NCBI GenBank assembly: GCA_903867855.1
Contig: CAIPTA010000144.1
Span: 10,284 to 74,283 of the forward strand
DNA from: Oligoflexia bacterium
GTDB lineage: Bacteria; Bdellovibrionota; UBA1018; CAIPTA01
Reading direction: 5' to 3'
Length of the DNA stretch: 64,000 nt
The position numbers were made by a program, and so were the translations under genes. Shown in pieces: positions 26,391-33,452 of the stretch; positions within the stretch are counted from its first letter, which is position 1, and each line of letters begins with the position of its first letter. The notes under the pieces were generated by a model. It was not told the origin of the DNA, did no database searches, and worked only from the letters and a program-made list of their open reading frames with translations.

Positions 26391-27167
26391 ATGGAAAATA
26401 AATCTATGCGTGGTCCCGTCGCGATCCTATTCACTAGTTTTTTACTCACTGGTTGTTTTCAAACCCGTGCGGATATTCAACAAGAAAAAGAGCAACAGGC
26501 AATGGAAAGTTCCATGCAGCAGAGTGTTGCGGAACAATCGCAATCTCTGGAAGAACTACAGCAACATGTAGCGAAGTTACAGGGGCATATCGAAGAGCTT
26601 GAACACGGCCATAAGTCAGATGCGGGCGCCGAGCAGAAAAATCAGGAAGAGTTAAATAAAAAACTTGCCGCCATCACCGCACGATTGGATGCGATTGAGC
26701 AGAAACAAGAAGTGCTCTTCACAGAAGTAACGAAAGCCAAGCAAGAAGCTTTGCAAGCCCCAAAGTCTGCTCCAGCGGAACTTGCCCAAGGTGGAACTCC
26801 AAAACGAAAAGCCGCGGGCTTTGAGGCGGGCATCACCGCATTTCACGCTCATCAATATGCAGATGCAGCTGCAAATTTTAGTGCTTATTTGAAATCAGGA
26901 AAAAGCGTGAAGCATGCGCTTGATGCCAACTATTTTTTGGGCGAATCGCAGTATCAGCTGAAGCAATATTCTCAAGCTATTTTGGCCTATAATGCAGTTC
27001 ATGAAAAGGCGGGTAAGGCCTTGCTAGGTCGCAAGGCAACTCTGCGAATCGCGGAGTGCTTTTCGTTGATGGGAAATCACAAGGATGCGAAAGCTTTTGC
27101 CCAGCTTCTCTTGGATGCGAGCCCAGATAGTGCTGAAGCGAGAGCAGCACGGAAGTACTTGAAATGA
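26391..27167 (+). CDS. cpoB: Tol-Pal system protein YbgF/CpoB
   Basis: 258 aa. Signal peptide, Gln/Glu-rich coiled coil, C-terminal TPR-like repeats. Position directly after pal. Confidence 0.65.
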   Translation: MENKSMRGPVAILFTSFLLTGCFQTRADIQQEKEQQAMESSMQQSVAEQSQSLEELQQHVAKLQGHIEELEHGHKSDAGAEQKNQEELNKKLAAITARLDAIEQKQEVLFTEVTKAKQEALQAPKSAPAELAQGGTPKRKAAGFEAGITAFHAHQYADAAANFSAYLKSGKSVKHALDANYFLGESQYQLKQYSQAILAYNAVHEKAGKALLGRKATLRIAECFSLMGNHKDAKAFAQLLLDASPDSAEARAARKYLK

Positions 27168-28720
27168 AAAACCTGATTTTTACTGCGCTTGCGTTAGTGC
27201 TGGCATCGTGCACCTCGAGCAAGCAGTCTACGAAGTCTAATTCAGGAAGCATCTATATCATGTACAATAATGATAACTTTGCTTTCCTGGATCCTTGCGG
27301 CTGCCGCATCTCTCCGATCGGAGGAATTGATCGTAGATGGAATGCAATGCAAGGCTATGCAGAAGAGTCGCGCGTATTTGTTGATGGCGGGAATTTTCTA
27401 TTCAAGAGCCCGAGCGCGGCAGACTATCTCAAGCCACAATGGTTTGAGCAGGCCAAGGGCGTGGTGGAAGGATACAATCTTCTGCATGCAGATGCTGTTG
27501 CTATTGGAGAAAATGAGTTTGCGCTCGGTGTGAAAAAGTTTGAAGAGATCGCCGCTACGGCGAACTTCCCTTTCCTATCAGCCAATATTTATAAAAAGGG
27601 CACAGATACTCTGTTTGCCAAGGATTCCATTCTCCTCGAAAAGCGTGGAAAGAAAATTGGCGTTTTCGCTGTATTTTTGCCGAGCCTCAAGTTGCCTCCT
27701 GAATTAGAGGCGCGAGATATTAATGAGGCTGCTCGTGAGGAAGTGAAAAAACTTCGCGCTAGAGGAGCAGATTTAGTGATCGCTCTTGCGCACGAAGGCT
27801 ATGAGAATGATTTGAAGTTGGCTAAGGCTGTGCCCGGTATCGATCTGATTGTGGGCGCAAGCTCGCAAAGTTTGTTGCAAAATCCAACCTCGGAAGGGGA
27901 TACGCGAATTGTGCAGCTCTCTAGCCAAGGGCAGATGTTTGCCTACTTAGAGTATGGTCTCCAGGAATTTCCGAAAAAGCTTCTTAGCAATGTGGTGCTT
28001 GAGCTGAATGCGGATTTCAACCATTCGCCGAACGATGAAGCGAATCCGATGAAAAATTTGATTGCGGTTACCAACTTGCGCATTGGCCAGGCAAATCGCA
28101 AGCTCGATGAAAAAATTTGGGCCGAACATAAGGATGCTGTAGCTGGGTATGATACTTTCATTAGCTGCCGTGATTGCCATAGTAAGCAAGCAGAGTTTCA
28201 AGAAGGCAAGCCCCATGCGGCCTCATTCTTGGCATTGGTCGCTAAGAAGCAGGAAACTAACCTAGACTGTGTGAAGTGCCATAGCGTAGGCCTCGGTGTG
28301 CCAGGTGGATTCCAGTCGATGTCAGAAGCGCTTCGCGATGAGTCTGGGCAGGGTGTGGCGGTTGAATCTGTGATTGCGAAAATGGGCAAAGATTTTCCAC
28401 CTAAAGAAGAATATCGTGTGCTGTATCATAAGGATCCAAAACACTTACGTGCTGATGTGCAGCGCTGGATTGCCTCCTTGCAAAGTAGTGGGGTGAAGAA
28501 GGCCTTCCTCGGCATGCAGTGCGAGAATTGCCATGGTGGAATGTCTGGGCATCCATTTGCCAACGATAATAAGTCACCCACCGTAACTAGCGCAATTTGC
28601 CTGCAGTGCCACACCAAAGAGCAGGCTCCAGCTTGGTACGGTAGCGATGGAAAAGTAAACACAGCGGTAGTGGCAGCGGCGATTAAAGAAATGGGCTGTC
28701 CTCGCAATACGAAAGAGTAG
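27164..28720 (+). CDS. Lipoprotein fusing a degenerate calcineurin/5'-nucleotidase-like domain to a C-terminal tetra-haem cytochrome c domain
   Basis: 518 aa. Lipobox LASC. N-domain resembles UshA-type phosphoesterases but lacks the metal ligands (NNDNF, DGGNF, GENEF). Four CxxCH motifs: CRDCH, CVKCH, CENCH, CLQCH (28166-28612). Confidence 0.7.
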   Translation: MKNLIFTALALVLASCTSSKQSTKSNSGSIYIMYNNDNFAFLDPCGCRISPIGGIDRRWNAMQGYAEESRVFVDGGNFLFKSPSAADYLKPQWFEQAKGVVEGYNLLHADAVAIGENEFALGVKKFEEIAATANFPFLSANIYKKGTDTLFAKDSILLEKRGKKIGVFAVFLPSLKLPPELEARDINEAAREEVKKLRARGADLVIALAHEGYENDLKLAKAVPGIDLIVGASSQSLLQNPTSEGDTRIVQLSSQGQMFAYLEYGLQEFPKKLLSNVVLELNADFNHSPNDEANPMKNLIAVTNLRIGQANRKLDEKIWAEHKDAVAGYDTFISCRDCHSKQAEFQEGKPHAASFLALVAKKQETNLDCVKCHSVGLGVPGGFQSMSEALRDESGQGVAVESVIAKMGKDFPPKEEYRVLYHKDPKHLRADVQRWIASLQSSGVKKAFLGMQCENCHGGMSGHPFANDNKSPTVTSAICLQCHTKEQAPAWYGSDGKVNTAVVAAAIKEMGCPRNTKE

Positions 28721-29289: not shown

Positions 29290-29925
29290 TTAATTCCAGT
29301 TAACGGTGAATTCTGCGGCTGGGCCTTCGGCCTTCTCGATCTTGATGAAGCCCTTATTTAGGCCGTGCAGGAAAACATCTTTCGTTACTTCAACGTCTTT
29401 CAAGCAATACTCGATGATCTTTTTCACATCGCCTTGCTTCCACCATTCTACTGCCATGATACCATCCGCACTTTTGCCCACGCCGAGGGTGGCGGTGGCC
29501 ACTTTCTCTAGCTTCACAAATTTCCAGCCGCTCACATTATGGATATCGAGCATGATATCAAAGGTGTCGAGCTTTGAGTGGTGAGGGCAGCCGTACTTCT
29601 CGAGCACCGGCAAATCGAAGCCAATAATATTATAGCCAATCACGAGGCGCTCTTTGCAGAGCTTGATCATGTCGCCTAATTGATCTTCCGTATAGGAGTA
29701 GAATTTGCCATCGCGAGAATCGTAGGCGCAGGCCACCGATACTTCGAGAGCTTTAAAGTTTTTCCAGCCACCTACGGCATCCACTAGCGTTTTTGTTTCG
29801 ATATCCACTACGAGAAAATCTTTGTGATTTTGAAATAGAGAGGCAGGCGACAAGTCGCTGCCCAAAGGGATGCTAAGATCATGGCTCCAGAAGGAGGAAC
29901 TGAGTTTTACGCGATTTGTGCTCAT
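29290..29925 (-). CDS. Stand-alone DEDDy-type 3'-5' exonuclease (RNase H-like fold)
   Basis: 211 aa. ExoI VVDIET, ExoII GYNIIGFDLPVL, ExoIII YCLKD (Y-x3-D). Confidence 0.65.
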   Translation of the reverse strand: MSTNRVKLSSSFWSHDLSIPLGSDLSPASLFQNHKDFLVVDIETKTLVDAVGGWKNFKALEVSVACAYDSRDGKFYSYTEDQLGDMIKLCKERLVIGYNIIGFDLPVLEKYGCPHHSKLDTFDIMLDIHNVSGWKFVKLEKVATATLGVGKSADGIMAVEWWKQGDVKKIIEYCLKDVEVTKDVFLHGLNKGFIKIEKAEGPAAEFTVNWN

Positions 29926-30090
29926 AGGAATTGGATACCATAGTTCGAAAATCGCTTCAAAAGATTGCGCAGACTCTCTGTGTCTAAATGGAATATAAAT
30001 ATTTTATGTTTGTATCTACTTGGACAATGTTTAAAAATTCGCTGGAGATTCGTGCCTTTACCCCCGCATCCGGAACCCACAGATTTTTGC

Positions 30091-30119
30091 TTGACCAAAA
30101 CAATCAGGCTTGTTAGAGT
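30091..30119 (+). promoter_or_regulatory. Sigma70-like promoter for the riboswitch RNA
   Basis: TTGACC (30091-30096), 17-nt spacer, TAGAGT (30114-30119). T-rich stretch just upstream. Predicted TSS about 30126. Confidence 0.5.
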
Positions 30120-30160
30120 TGAAATATAGGGAATGGGAAACAAATTTTAAGTTAGGAAAT

Positions 30161-30252
30161 CCCAGCGAAAAGGGCAATCCGTAGCGAAAGCACGGGGCGC
30201 AAAGTTCTTATCCTACCCTCGAGAGAGAAGGGATGAAGAATTGCCGCAAGGG
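30161..30252 (+). promoter_or_regulatory. c-di-GMP class I (GEMM-I) riboswitch aptamer
   Basis: AAAAGGGCAAUCC-GUAGC-GAAA-GCAC-GGGGCGCAAAG-[hairpin 30205-30240]-UUGCC. This matches the conserved AGGGCAAACC ... GAAA ... GGGACGCAAAG ... UU(A/G)CC framework of the Vibrio cholerae Vc2 aptamer. Confidence 0.8.
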
Positions 30253-30551
30253 CGAGTGTTCCATACGTTCGGTCGAGAGCATCGGCGGCTCTGACTATGC
30301 TATGCTTGGGTTAACTATTGGCGGCGAGCTGATAGTTAGGACGTGTCGGGCCTCGAAGGAGAAACGAATGAAAACGGAGTGCTAGCGCAAGCTAGTGGTT
30401 CCGTTTACGAGAAACTTGTTTAAAAAAATTCAAATATCGATTGCATAGGATTTCGGCTCGGGACGGAGATGATAGAGTAAATATCTCTGCCGCGAGGTGA
30501 GCCTACACTATATGTGTTTGCAGCCTGCCGATTTTGATCGGCGGCGATGAA

Positions 30552-30584
30552 AGAGGTTGATTATGAATCAACCTCTTTTTTTTT
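30552..30584 (+). terminator. Rho-independent terminator of the riboswitch RNA (T-tract overlaps the convergent suhB stop codon)
   Basis: 11-bp perfect stem AGAGGTTGATT (30552-30562) / AATCAACCTCT (30566-30576), 3-nt loop, then a run of 8 further T (30577-30584; 9 consecutive T from 30576). Confidence 0.85.
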
Positions 30585-31377
30585 ATTTCAAAATTTCCAT
30601 CATGCGGGGATGAATAATCCCATTCGTCGCGAGCACTTCTCTGCCCATCAGATCTAATGGATCATTTCTATAGTTACTCACTTCGCCACCAGCTTCCGTG
30701 ACTAGTGCTGCTCCGGCACAAATATCCCAGCTACCTAAATTTTGTTCCCAAAAGCCATCGAATACACCTGCGGCTACGTAGGCAAGGTCGATTGCGGCAG
30801 CGCCGGGGCGTCTTACTGCGCGGGCCTCTAGGTGAGCATTGTGAAATTTCTCGATCGCAGGCGCTAGCATGCTCTCTTCTTGGCTGTAAGCAAAACCAGT
30901 GGTGAGCAAGCACTCAGAAATTTTCTTGCGATCACTCACGTGAATTTTCTTTTTCCCAAGAAAGGCGCCACTTCCCTTGGCTGCATGAAAAGTTTCCTTT
31001 AGACAAGGAATATGAATCACACCGAGCACTGGGTCCCCCGCGATCGCGAGACCGATAGAGACACAAAACATGGGAAAGCCGTGAACGAAATTTGTGGTGC
31101 CATCGAGTGGATCCACATGCCAAACGGGAGTATCGCCGTGAATGAGATCACTTTGGCCACTTTCTTCCCCAATGAAAACGAAGCTAGGAAACTTTTTCTG
31201 AAGAGCGGCTTTAATGAATTTTTCGCTCTTTAAGTCAGCTTGTGTAACAAGCCCTGCTTTAAACTTTTCTTTGATGATGAGTTTTTTACGATAGTAGCTT
31301 AGCAAAATTTTGCCTGCGCCTTCTGCTACTTTACAAACCTCGGCCTTAATTTTTACGAGCTCTGATTTCTTGAGCAT
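30583..31377 (-). CDS. suhB: Inositol monophosphatase family protein
   Basis: 264 aa. IMPase motifs WHVDPLDGTTNFVHG and GSWDICAGAALVTEAGG. Confidence 0.85.
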   Translation of the reverse strand: MLKKSELVKIKAEVCKVAEGAGKILLSYYRKKLIIKEKFKAGLVTQADLKSEKFIKAALQKKFPSFVFIGEESGQSDLIHGDTPVWHVDPLDGTTNFVHGFPMFCVSIGLAIAGDPVLGVIHIPCLKETFHAAKGSGAFLGKKKIHVSDRKKISECLLTTGFAYSQEESMLAPAIEKFHNAHLEARAVRRPGAAAIDLAYVAAGVFDGFWEQNLGSWDICAGAALVTEAGGEVSNYRNDPLDLMGREVLATNGIIHPRMMEILK

Positions 31378-32300
31378 TAGAAGAAGGCCTCTTTCGCGTG
31401 AGTCTTGGTATACTCGGCTACATATTTTTTATATTCTTGGATAAGTCTCTTTGTGAGTTCGCCGCCACCAGAGGGAAACACTTGCTTGGCTCCATGTTCA
31501 AATCGGATTCCGCACACTGGCATGATTTCCCTCGTTGCACTACTTACGAAACACTCTTTCATGCTGGGAATATCTTCCGGACGCAATGGTCGCTCCGAGT
31601 AGCCCACACCAATTTTTTTGCAAACTTCGGCAACGGCTCTTTTCGTGAGACCTTTTAGATTCCCCGTATTGGTGCCTGCTTCATGAGGGGGAGAAATTAT
31701 CTTCCCATCCTGCACAAAGCACACATTGCTATTCGATGCCTCAGTTAATTTTCCATCTAGACTTAAAATAAGAGCATCGTCTGCTCCCAATTTTTTTACT
31801 TCGCCGACGGCAAGGATATTGTTCAAGTAGTTACCACTCTTGATATTTGGATCGAGGGCGAGGGGAGAGTTCCGCCTGATCGAGGGCATGGCGAGCCACA
31901 TACCTTCTTGGTAAAAGCGCGGATTCCAATCCACTATGGGTTTCACTAAAATGATATAGCTCGTTTTTTTGGCTAGCGCTGGATCAAGATCGAGCACACT
32001 TTCGCCACGAGTGATTGCATAACGAATGAAAACTTCTTCGCCAGCCTGTACGTTGCTAGAGGCAACGGTGCGGCGAATTTCTTCTTTCAAGAAAAGTCGA
32101 GATTGGGAGAGTTCCATTTGCGCGAGTCGCGCGGAGTTTTCTAGGCGCTCGAAGTGCTCATCATAATAAAAGGGCACACCAGAATAAGTGCGCACTACTT
32201 CATAGATGGAGTCACCGTATAAAAAACCACGATCAAAGATGGAGATTTTTGCGTCACTCGCAGCCGTGATCAAACCATTCACATTCGCTGTTGCTTGCAT
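31377..32300 (-). CDS. Class IV (fold type IV) aminotransferase, branched-chain/D-amino-acid type
   Basis: 307 aa. FDRGFLYGDSIYEVVRTY, LTEASNSNVCFV, GNLKGLTR-like segment. Confidence 0.8.
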   Translation of the reverse strand: MQATANVNGLITAASDAKISIFDRGFLYGDSIYEVVRTYSGVPFYYDEHFERLENSARLAQMELSQSRLFLKEEIRRTVASSNVQAGEEVFIRYAITRGESVLDLDPALAKKTSYIILVKPIVDWNPRFYQEGMWLAMPSIRRNSPLALDPNIKSGNYLNNILAVGEVKKLGADDALILSLDGKLTEASNSNVCFVQDGKIISPPHEAGTNTGNLKGLTKRAVAEVCKKIGVGYSERPLRPEDIPSMKECFVSSATREIMPVCGIRFEHGAKQVFPSGGGELTKRLIQEYKKYVAEYTKTHAKEAFF

Positions 32301-32309
32301 AGGGGAAGC

Positions 32310-33452
32310 TTACTGTAAGCGTTCGAGCTTAGCTAGAGGATAGTAAAATTGCAGAATCTCTCTGTAGGATTTGCCAAGATCCGCCATGGCCTTCGCGCCA
32401 ATCTGGCACATACCCACGCCGTGGCCATATCCATGGCCATCAAACTCTACTCCGTTATCGTTCGCGTGTAGATCGAAAGCGGTGCTCTTGATATGAGTAT
32501 TTCCTACAGCATTGCGAAAGGCGTTTGCAGAAATCACGGCGGTATTTCCTTGCGAATCAGAAATGATAAGATCATTCATGCGCGCATTTTCGTTGTTTGG
32601 TCCTGATTCTAAATGGGCGAGACGAGCAAAGCCTCGTGGCAATAAGCCAGCCACTTTGTGTAAGGCCTGATCGAGCTGATAGAGTGAGCTATGGAAATTC
32701 CAATGTCTTTGGCTGGCGCTGGTTTGGTGGTAAGGGCAAACCACTGGGCGAATATAGCCATATTTTTCGCCCCACACTGCTTCTGGATTTTCTGTTTTTC
32801 CGCCACAGTCCGCATGGAAAAAGGCTTTGATAGGTTCATGCTTCCACGCGAGAACCATCCCTTGAGTGCTTTCTGCCGCGCGGTTCGATTTTGGTGTTTC
32901 GCTACTAGCACCATCATATACTTGATCTTGGGTAGTGCTCTCTAAATCAAAATTTCTCGCCGAACTATATTGCATCTGGTGGAGTGCATAGGTACGCGAG
33001 GCCACCGCTTGAGCACGCAGAGCTTCCATCGGCCAGCTTGCCAGCATCTCCTTGTTGATTAGGCCGGCAATATATTTTTCTAAGTTAAGCTTATTCACCA
33101 CGGCACAGTTGCCATGATCGATATAGATAAAAATATCGCCGCGATAGGCTTTATCCTGAATGTTCACAAAATTGCCACGGGAACTGATTTGTAGGCGTTG
33201 CTCTGGCTTGGAATTCAGGCCATAGCTAATTCCTGCTTGGTTGCAGTGAATACTAAATACGCTGCTAGACTCAATGCTCACTGTATTATTTAGAACGAGA
33301 TCGGTGCCGGAAATTTCTAGCTCAGTGAAGTGACCTAGGAGCACGCGTACATCGCGATTCTCTAGGCTCGTGAGGCTTGGTCTTGGTATGGCGGCTTCTG
33401 CGGATACGCAAAAACAAATATTAAAGGCTAAAAAACTACGAAGCCACCACAT
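32310..33452 (-). CDS. SpoIID/LytB domain protein (peptidoglycan remodelling)
   Basis: 380 aa. Signal peptide, MEALRAQAVASRTYAL, FHADCGGKTE, GHGVGMCQIGA. Confidence 0.8.
   Translation of the reverse strand: MWWLRSFLAFNICFCVSAEAAIPRPSLTSLENRDVRVLLGHFTELEISGTDLVLNNTVSIESSSVFSIHCNQAGISYGLNSKPEQRLQISSRGNFVNIQDKAYRGDIFIYIDHGNCAVVNKLNLEKYIAGLINKEMLASWPMEALRAQAVASRTYALHQMQYSSARNFDLESTTQDQVYDGASSETPKSNRAAESTQGMVLAWKHEPIKAFFHADCGGKTENPEAVWGEKYGYIRPVVCPYHQTSASQRHWNFHSSLYQLDQALHKVAGLLPRGFARLAHLESGPNNENARMNDLIISDSQGNTAVISANAFRNAVGNTHIKSTAFDLHANDNGVEFDGHGYGHGVGMCQIGAKAMADLGKSYREILQFYYPLAKLERLQ

Follow-up and report, generated by a model that had tools for sequence, protein, structure and literature searches.

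Orphan riboswitches, which regulate no gene, are rare. The closest described system to the RNA analyzed here is merRNA, the massively expressed riboswitch RNA of Bdellovibrio bacteriovorus HD100 reported by Karunker et al. in 2013 (PMC3627812), a 445-nt transcript with an embedded cyclic di-GMP class I (c-di-GMP-I) aptamer and no conserved open reading frame (ORF). It is among the most abundant attack-phase Bdellovibrio RNAs, with a very high expression resembling that of structural RNAs; its discoverers, who saw no relatives beyond the Bdellovibrio lineage, proposed that it acts as a c-di-GMP sponge (PMC3627812). That speculative model has been the only one since 2013, and merRNA was still a "predicted riboswitch" in 2024 (PMC11323537). 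Here, we analyze a c-di-GMP-I aptamer and the roughly 300 nt that follow it (30253-30550, hereafter the tail) on the + strand of a 64-kb stretch of DNA from an Oligoflexia bacterium (the whole of which we call the window). We find that the tail is a real, conserved, uncharacterized RNA domain belonging to a merRNA-type orphan riboswitch RNA and is not a recognizable ribozyme. The locus is a member of a second family of stand-alone c-di-GMP-I RNAs in Bdellovibrionota, unrelated in sequence to the first.

Several other systems are relevant to this comparison. Trans-acting small RNAs (sRNAs) that carry a riboswitch include EutX/Rli55, in which an adenosylcobalamin riboswitch is joined to ANTAR-decoy hairpins, SreA/SreB, and a Desulfovibrio S-adenosylmethionine-I (SAM-I) sRNA (10.1101/803072; PMC5821096); EutX/Rli55 are described there as titrating a protein (PMC5821096). 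In Clostridioides difficile, a c-di-GMP-II aptamer and a group I ribozyme together form an allosteric ribozyme, and tandem riboswitch arrangements that include c-di-GMP-I are also known (PMC9481103). Two further c-di-GMP-I riboswitches sit before protein genes: Bc1 of Bacillus thuringiensis, which has a long platform of two terminators (PMC11218506), and, in Vibrio cholerae, Vc2, which governs how stable an upstream sRNA is (10.1101/617340).

The aptamer and tail lie in a 657-bp gap (29926-30582) between two minus-strand genes. The ORF list and Pfam give no + strand gene between the aptamer and the terminator or after the terminator. Because the segment has its own promoter and terminator and no + strand gene, we read it as the body of an RNA and not as a leader, and because the unit is free-standing and gene-less, its riboswitch controls no downstream gene: the next gene is convergent, and the ORFs opened by the one conserved AUG run to 2-26 codons, so that we find no expression platform acting on a gene. 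From the promoter scan, transcription is predicted to start at about 30126, which would make the flagged 300 nt the greater part of a self-contained non-coding RNA of about 460 nt, with the aptamer as its 5' third. The promoter combines a near-consensus -35 element with an extended -10 and is conserved; the layout TTGACN-N15-TGN-[G/T]A...T recurs at an equal upstream distance in nine homologues and in L169. At the other end, the terminator shares sequence with the stop codon (30583-30585) of the convergent SuhB-type gene; given its A tract, hairpin, and U tract, it is probably bidirectional. An equivalent terminator adjoins the SuhB-type gene in all homologues. The features of the unit and of its flanks are collected in Table 1.

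Table 1. Features of the aptamer-tail RNA and of its flanking genes. Positions are those of the window; SD, Shine-Dalgarno sequence.
Feature	Position	Strand	Basis
RNase H-fold exonuclease-like gene	29290-29925	-	ORF list, Pfam
Promoter: -35 TTGACC, 17-nt spacer ending TGT (extended -10), -10 TAGAGT	30091-30119	+	promoter scan
5' leader ending AAAUCCC	30126-30162	+	sequence
c-di-GMP-I aptamer	30163-30248	+	RF01051, 49.2 bits (gathering score 35)
Three-way junction	30254-30354	+	covariation, RNAalifold, model R1
Pa, closing helix of the junction	30254-30270 with 30339-30354	+	pair coordinates by folding and model
Pb, GUC-G-AGAGC[AUCGGCG]GCUCU-GAC	hairpin 30272-30295, arm 30271-30296	+	folds and covariation
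Junction strand running into invariant GGGUU (30308-30312)	30297-30311	+	alignment
Pc, UUAACUAU/AUAGUUAG stem, loop GGCGA	30311-30339 (junction arm 30312-30338)	+	folds and covariation
SD GAAGGAG (30355-30361), 6-nt spacer, AUG (30368-30370)	30355-30370	+	alignment
Mini-ORF MKTEC, then stop	30368-30385	+	opened by the conserved AUG; peptide unconserved
Pd, two-tier hairpin of 7+7 bp, GCAA loop, starting 2 nt after the AUG	30372-30406	+	folds
A/U-rich linker UUAAAAAAAUUCAAAUAUCGAUU, predicted single-stranded	30420-30442	+	composition and folding
Variable hairpin region, including the long irregular hairpin 30455-30503	30447-30520	+	folds
Pe, pre-terminator hairpin GCC-U-GCCGAU[UUUG]AUCGGC-GGC (inner stem-loop 30527-30542)	30523-30545	+	folds and covariation
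Intrinsic terminator: 14-bp stem, 9-U run, A tract before it	30549-30588	+	terminator scan
Inositol-monophosphatase/SuhB-family gene, convergent to the RNA	30583-31377	-	ORF list, Pfam PF00459

To compare the RNA across lineages, we anchored the homologue searches on the SuhB-type protein, whose closest counterpart in a species-representative genome collection is 66% identical. The searches gave ten homologous RNAs from Bdellovibrionota genomes and metagenomes, all of them convergent to a SuhB-type gene: L004, L005, and L006 are metagenome-assembled genomes (MAGs), L082 and L085 came from a metagenome scan, and L161 (cut by a contig end), L162, L166, L167, and L169 came from SuhB-homologue look-ups. 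The SuhB-type proteins are 60-70% identical across lineages. The SuhB-type side of the locus is constant and the far-side gene varies between loci. Two further loci, for which the gap size alone is known and which stand outside the sequence comparison, show a gap of about 600 nt, and several relatives have neither the gap nor the RNA.

RF01051 also matches seven of the homologues, at 40-53 bits, for a total of eight RNAs above threshold with the window included. In GGGCAAUCC, the first G of GGC aligns where variants that sense cyclic GMP-AMP carry A, which suggests that the aptamer is specific for c-di-GMP. In all homologues, the aptamer is preceded by AA(A/G/U)CCC and followed by AGGG, and in the window the CCC at 30161-30163 is able to pair with the GGG at 30250-30252 as a P1-like closing helix. 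We treat this pairing as putative; CCC and GGG are both invariant, so there is no covariation to score. An alternative is that the leader AACCC pairs with the GGGUU of the junction in place of the post-aptamer GGG, and here too both sides are invariant.

In every case, the three-way junction begins immediately after the aptamer, 1-2 nt past the AGGG. We found compensatory changes at 23 of its 27 pairs, and RNAalifold recovered the same helices from a sequence-only MAFFT alignment. Of the cells in the 10-sequence model alignment, 86.5% are paired, a share that falls to 34-48% once partners are displaced by 1-3 columns (86.5-87% against 34-50% over the 9- and 10-sequence alignments), and none of 500 shuffles matched the observed junction values on any measure. 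A covariance model of the junction (R1), built from the MAFFT alignment with L169 held out, matched L169 at 44 bits (E = 3e-10); the same model found no second junction copy elsewhere in the window and none in the remaining 67 of 76 loci. G-U pairs make up about one fifth of the paired junction cells, indicating that the structure belongs to the + strand. Folding energy alone is unpersuasive: the + strand gave z = -2.4 (3 of 200 shuffles as stable) and the - strand a stronger z = -3.3; the analysis therefore leans on comparative evidence. Wherever a homologue carries Pc, the loop reads GGNRA or UGGNRAA. We considered a pairing of this loop (GGCGA/GGCAA) with the 3' UUGCCG strand of the aptamer, which is not supported: the two are complementary in the window, L005, and L085 but not in L166 and L162, and a lineage that has lost the aptamer (see below) still has the loop.

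The short single-stranded gap between Pa and Pd is occupied by an SD and start codon. The arrangement GGAG, 5-7 nt, AUG is found at the same aligned position in all 11 RNAs, with spacer sequences that vary by lineage; by chance, such a motif turns up somewhere in a shuffled RNA with a probability of 6-17% per sequence. What the AUG opens is not conserved. The ORFs have lengths of 2, 3, 3, 4, 5, 7, 7, 20, 20, 26, and 26 codons with unrelated sequences, the shortest (L004) being Met-Glu only, and the start reads AUG-GGN-GCN or AUG-AGU-GCG in 8 of 11. No conserved ORF of greater length was found on the RNA strand among the homologues. A 50-codon ORF in frame with the mini-ORF (30233-30385, +) is spurious, since it starts inside the aptamer, crosses covarying helices, and has no counterpart in the homologues. 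A strong SD that heads no real coding sequence, on a transcript that has to be stable, recalls the STAB-SD elements, SD-like sequences that stabilize transcripts by binding 30S subunits without initiating a gene, as in Bacillus thuringiensis cryIIIA. The likeness is one of analogy only: STAB-SD elements lie near the mRNA 5' end, in Firmicutes, and are not known to have a conserved AUG, whereas the SD-AUG described here is internal, flanked by helices, and found in a Gram-negative lineage.

The distal half of the tail is more uneven, and its middle is poorly conserved. A hairpin of 35-45 nt that starts 1-4 nt past the AUG is predicted for each of the 10 homologues, with differing sequences (for example, GUGC/GCAC versus GAGC/GCUC in the stem); MAFFT could not align Pd, so its support comes from per-sequence folds, without a formal pair count. 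In 9 of 10 homologues, 40-57 nt past the AUG, there follows a stretch of 18-30 nt that is 76-87% A+U and has a high unpaired probability, and an A-rich block aligns across all. The next region differs between lineages in the number and sequence of its hairpins. Pe is present in all 11 RNAs, with compensatory changes at 7 of 7 consensus pairs and an invariant UU in the loop, and it is followed by GC(A)G, a purine-rich spacer, and the terminator. The preliminary description of this DNA, which was made from the letters of the stretch, had listed five hairpins in the tail. Sequence and minimum-free-energy folds place all five where it had them, and four lie at positions that have a hairpin in every homologue, the exception being the long irregular hairpin, which is lineage-specific. 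Its list was incomplete, as it had passed over Pa, the SD-AUG, and the A/U-rich linker.

For three pairs of related genomes, we compared RNA identity with identity at the 4-fold degenerate sites of the adjacent SuhB-type gene, using Fisher tests on rounded counts. RNA identity exceeded that of the silent sites in each pair: 0.96 versus 0.89 for L006/L167 (p about 0.005), 0.79 versus 0.62 for L082/L162 (p 3e-4), and 0.71 versus 0.33 for L005/L166 (p 7e-13). The distal half alone was also above the silent-site level (0.98, 0.72, and 0.63 for the same pairs). The RNA is thus under purifying selection. One of these pairs is particularly informative. In L006 (3865-4300, -) and L167 (2360-2800, -), about half of the aptamer is missing, and RF01051 gives no match at E<=10 in the former or at E<=5 in the latter. 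Both keep the promoter, leader CCC, AGGG, junction, SD-AUG, Pd, linker, Pe, and terminator. Because the tail is kept and the whole RNA is under purifying selection without the aptamer, we conclude that the tail has a role independent of c-di-GMP sensing.

Rfam searches of positions 29900-30650 of the window and of L006 (E<=10), and of eight homologues (E<=5), returned no family besides c-di-GMP-I. Within Rfam 15, the group I and II introns, small self-cleaving ribozymes, RNase P, tmRNA, 6S, and SRP gave no match, and the GOLLD, ROOL, HEARO, and raiA models gave no accepted match; the only weak matches were terminator look-alikes and one raiA-hairpin at 16 bits. Phage and plasmid records showed no similarity to the tail. 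The preliminary description had called the tail an uncharacterized structured domain fused to the aptamer and had pointed to related genomes, helix covariation, and an Rfam scan as the places to check this. All three agree with it: the domain is conserved in 10 homologues, it covaries both in the junction and in Pe, and a cmscan-type search of described families returned only the aptamer, leaving the domain absent from RNA libraries. Its further suggestion of a large tertiary-folded RNA or ribozyme finds no support: the conserved part of the tail is modular, consisting of a junction of about 100 nt, an SD-AUG, separate hairpins, and an unstructured A/U linker. A sponge of the CsrB/RsmZ type was also rejected. 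Each RNA has 7-11 GGA, against 7.5-12 expected from dinucleotide shuffles of nine homologues, and ANGGA is within about 2 standard deviations of expectation in every one of these RNAs; with neither motif enriched, the RNA is not a CsrB-type sponge.

How, then, does the RNA relate to merRNA? Both place a c-di-GMP-I aptamer in a stand-alone RNA of about 450 nt that has its own terminator and no conserved ORF, and both occur in the phylum Bdellovibrionota. In our own reading of the published sequence, merRNA also carries a strong SD (GAAGGAGG), 6 nt, an AUG, and a 12-codon ORF, but these lie 5' of its aptamer. Outside the aptamer, we found no homology: blastn aligns the aptamer alone (31-37 nt), and a junction profile run with nhmmer gives no match in merRNA at E<=100. 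The order of domains also differs, with the merRNA aptamer at about nt 235-320, behind some 230 nt of 5' domain, whereas here the aptamer is 5' and about 340 nt follow it. Finally, merRNA lies between Bd1131 (an annotated branched-chain aminotransferase of 355 aa) and Bd1134, while the present RNA follows a SuhB-type gene; on this locus, positional orthology was rejected. Because only the aptamer aligns and both domain order and locus differ, the RNA is an analogue of merRNA and not a demonstrable homologue. In a Bdellovibrio MAG (L026), a 303-aa ORF, taken as the aminotransferase, is followed by the SuhB-type gene without the RNA. Two short matches were noted post hoc and may be due to chance: AGGGUUA about 30 nt before the merRNA aptamer, and, in APsRNA5 (PMC3627812, Figure S1), CUCGGGUUAGG, an 11-mer identical to the junction of L005.

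The remaining systems resemble the locus in part. Like EutX/Rli55, SreA/SreB, and the SAM-I sRNA, it fuses an aptamer to a non-coding output domain and not to a gene. In EutX/Rli55, a riboswitch terminator decides whether the output hairpins are transcribed, whereas here no terminator precedes the tail and we see no ANTAR-type hairpin pair. Gating of this type was accordingly rejected; the sole internal terminator-like site (30380-30397) lies inside Pd and has no U run. As in C. difficile, a cyclic di-GMP aptamer adjoins a larger structured RNA, but that system joins a class II aptamer to a group I intron splicing an mRNA, while here the aptamer is class I and there is neither a ribozyme match nor an mRNA. 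The preliminary description had named the C. difficile RNA as the one precedent for such a fusion, which holds for allosteric ribozymes, but aptamer RNAs without a gene are known as well (merRNA, EutX/Rli55). Bc1 and Vc2 share the aptamer class, with a long downstream platform in the former and an output through RNA stability in the latter; a three-way junction with a gene-less start site is described for neither. The form of a tandem riboswitch is present (covarying stems, conserved junction nucleotides, and an adjacent SD), as a matter of form only.

We tentatively favor a model in which the ligand sets the junction of a stand-alone, merRNA-type RNA, the SD-AUG captures ribosomes, and this capture governs the stability and abundance of the RNA; we regard it as a plausible proposal that falls short of being probable. 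In this model, c-di-GMP binding would stabilize the P1-like CCC/GGG pairing that flanks the aptamer. That pairing abuts Pa (1-2 nt), so the ligand could fix the junction and thereby how the SD-AUG is presented. The SD-AUG would be the output, capturing a 30S subunit or a ribosome without producing a meaningful peptide, and the captured ribosome would protect the RNA from cleavage at the A/U linker, setting its stability and hence its abundance, with Pe and the terminator guarding the 3' end. The RNA, if expressed at the high level we would expect, could then buffer or report c-di-GMP.

Several points weigh against this model. Both the transcription start and the abundance of the RNA are predictions. 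We found no mutually exclusive pairing that would link ligand binding to the SD; the best complement of the SD is a strand of the aptamer, a weak partner (-4.5 to -10.8 kcal/mol) such as is expected of any pyrimidine-rich strand. The modeled unpaired probability of the SD is inconsistent across homologues, and helix probabilities in full-length folds are erratic. With Pd only 1-4 nt after the AUG, 30S binding should be hindered rather than helped. The comparison covers 11 sequences from about 7 lineages, and alignments fitted to a model favor the modeled structure, although the MAFFT-only alignment gave the same helices. Because the aptamer-less lineage shows that the tail works without c-di-GMP, the aptamer may be an accessory rather than the input of a switch.

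If the RNA were purely a c-di-GMP sponge or store, as already proposed for merRNA (PMC3627812), only the aptamer would matter and the tail would be stabilizing ballast. A stand-alone aptamer RNA with a strong, conserved (predicted) promoter and a poorly conserved stretch in the middle of the distal half would fit this, but ballast needs no invariant junction nucleotides, no conserved Pc loop, and no SD-AUG in 11 of 11 RNAs. The tail of L006 and L167 is, moreover, still under purifying selection after aptamer loss, which argues that it is not mere ballast and challenges the pure sponge idea; we consider this explanation unlikely, if worth keeping in view. The tail could instead be a scaffold for a protein (Hfq, S1, RNase E, or another partner) or a trans-acting sRNA that pairs with mRNAs, modulated in either case by the aptamer. 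Modular hairpins, an A/U-rich single strand beside them, and a U-tailed terminator are features of Hfq-type sRNAs, and EutX/Rli55 provide a precedent for a protein-titrating riboswitch-sRNA (PMC5821096). Against this, GGA and ANGGA are not enriched, no terminator stands between aptamer and tail to gate tail synthesis as in EutX, and the conserved single-stranded seeds are limited to GGGUU, AAGGAG, and A-runs, so that we think such a function rather unlikely. The junction might also be a second aptamer that gates the adjacent SD together with the c-di-GMP-I aptamer. Variable stems that covary around invariant nucleotides, with an SD next to them, are what classically marks a translational riboswitch; the junction is still there in the lineage that has lost the c-di-GMP aptamer, and tandem arrangements have the precedent cited above (PMC9481103). 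However, there is no regulated gene to hint at a ligand, the junction resembles no Rfam riboswitch class, and invariance over about 7 sampled lineages is weakly informative, which makes a second aptamer improbable. A more general claim, that the junction and SD-AUG form a new RNA module that captures 30S subunits or ribosomes or else binds a second ligand, and that is gated in most lineages by a c-di-GMP aptamer, seems to us distinctly unlikely.

The remaining readings fare worse. It might be a relic platform, the leader of a gene lost in a common ancestor, of which the SD-AUG and first codons remain: the recurrent start in 8 of 11 RNAs could be that of an ancestral gene, and so long a 3' extension after a riboswitch is usually a leader. 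A neutral remnant, however, would not retain a promoter, covarying helices, Pe, and a terminator across lineages in which the SuhB-type proteins share only 60-70% identity, nor would it evolve more slowly than 4-fold degenerate sites, and we hold this to be very improbable. An allosteric ribozyme controlled by c-di-GMP, self-cleaving or self-splicing, is extremely improbable; a conserved structured RNA does adjoin the aptamer, and C. difficile offers one precedent (PMC9481103), but no Rfam ribozyme or intron was matched at the thresholds given above, there are no exons and no gene to splice, and the separate hairpins in series form no compact core. Least credible of all is a small-protein gene in which the riboswitch controls a peptide from AUG 30368 or from the 50-codon ORF. 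The SD and AUG are good and the 50-aa ORF is in the ORF list, but neither the length (2-26 aa) nor the sequence of the peptide is conserved, L004 encodes Met-Glu alone, and the longer ORF is spurious for the reasons given above; we give this almost no credence.

The family is diverse enough to define which parts of the tail are selected, namely the junction, the gene-less ribosome-binding site, the A/U linker, and Pe, and through it the non-aptamer part of merRNA-type RNAs can for the first time be approached by comparison. If the junction and SD-AUG did prove to be a module for ribosome capture or for a second ligand, some Bdellovibrionota would couple c-di-GMP to their capacity for translation or to how abundant the RNA itself is. 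The RNA would then be a ribosome-binding sRNA under second-messenger control or a gene-less riboswitch with two inputs, and the purpose of the non-aptamer parts of merRNA-type RNAs would be explained.

The genes around the RNA offer some additional observations. In all loci with gene calls, the RNA is preceded by genes for a SpoIID-domain protein, a class IV aminotransferase, and the SuhB-type phosphatase, an order that may represent a cell-wall-related operon. In the window (30583-33452, -), the aminotransferase and the SuhB-type gene are confirmed by Pfam, and a 380-aa ORF (32310-33452) occupies the SpoIID position. The tight packing of terminator and stop codon may explain why the RNA is constantly adjacent to the SuhB-type gene. 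The uncharacterized proteins of 266-351 aa that flank the RNA in other loci have no Pfam match and so are not Mrp. On the far side, a weak promoter-like site on the minus strand (30123-30150, -; TTAAAA, 16 nt, TATATT) lies back-to-back with the RNA promoter. It may serve the RNase H-like gene (29290-29925), in which case the two promoters would form a divergent pair. The window also encodes, at a distance of about 1.4 kb from the RNA, a multihaem cytochrome c-like protein of 518 aa (27164-28720, +) with CXXCH-type Pfam hits, and the same neighborhood, an RNase H-like gene and then the cytochrome, recurs in the locus of P0022.

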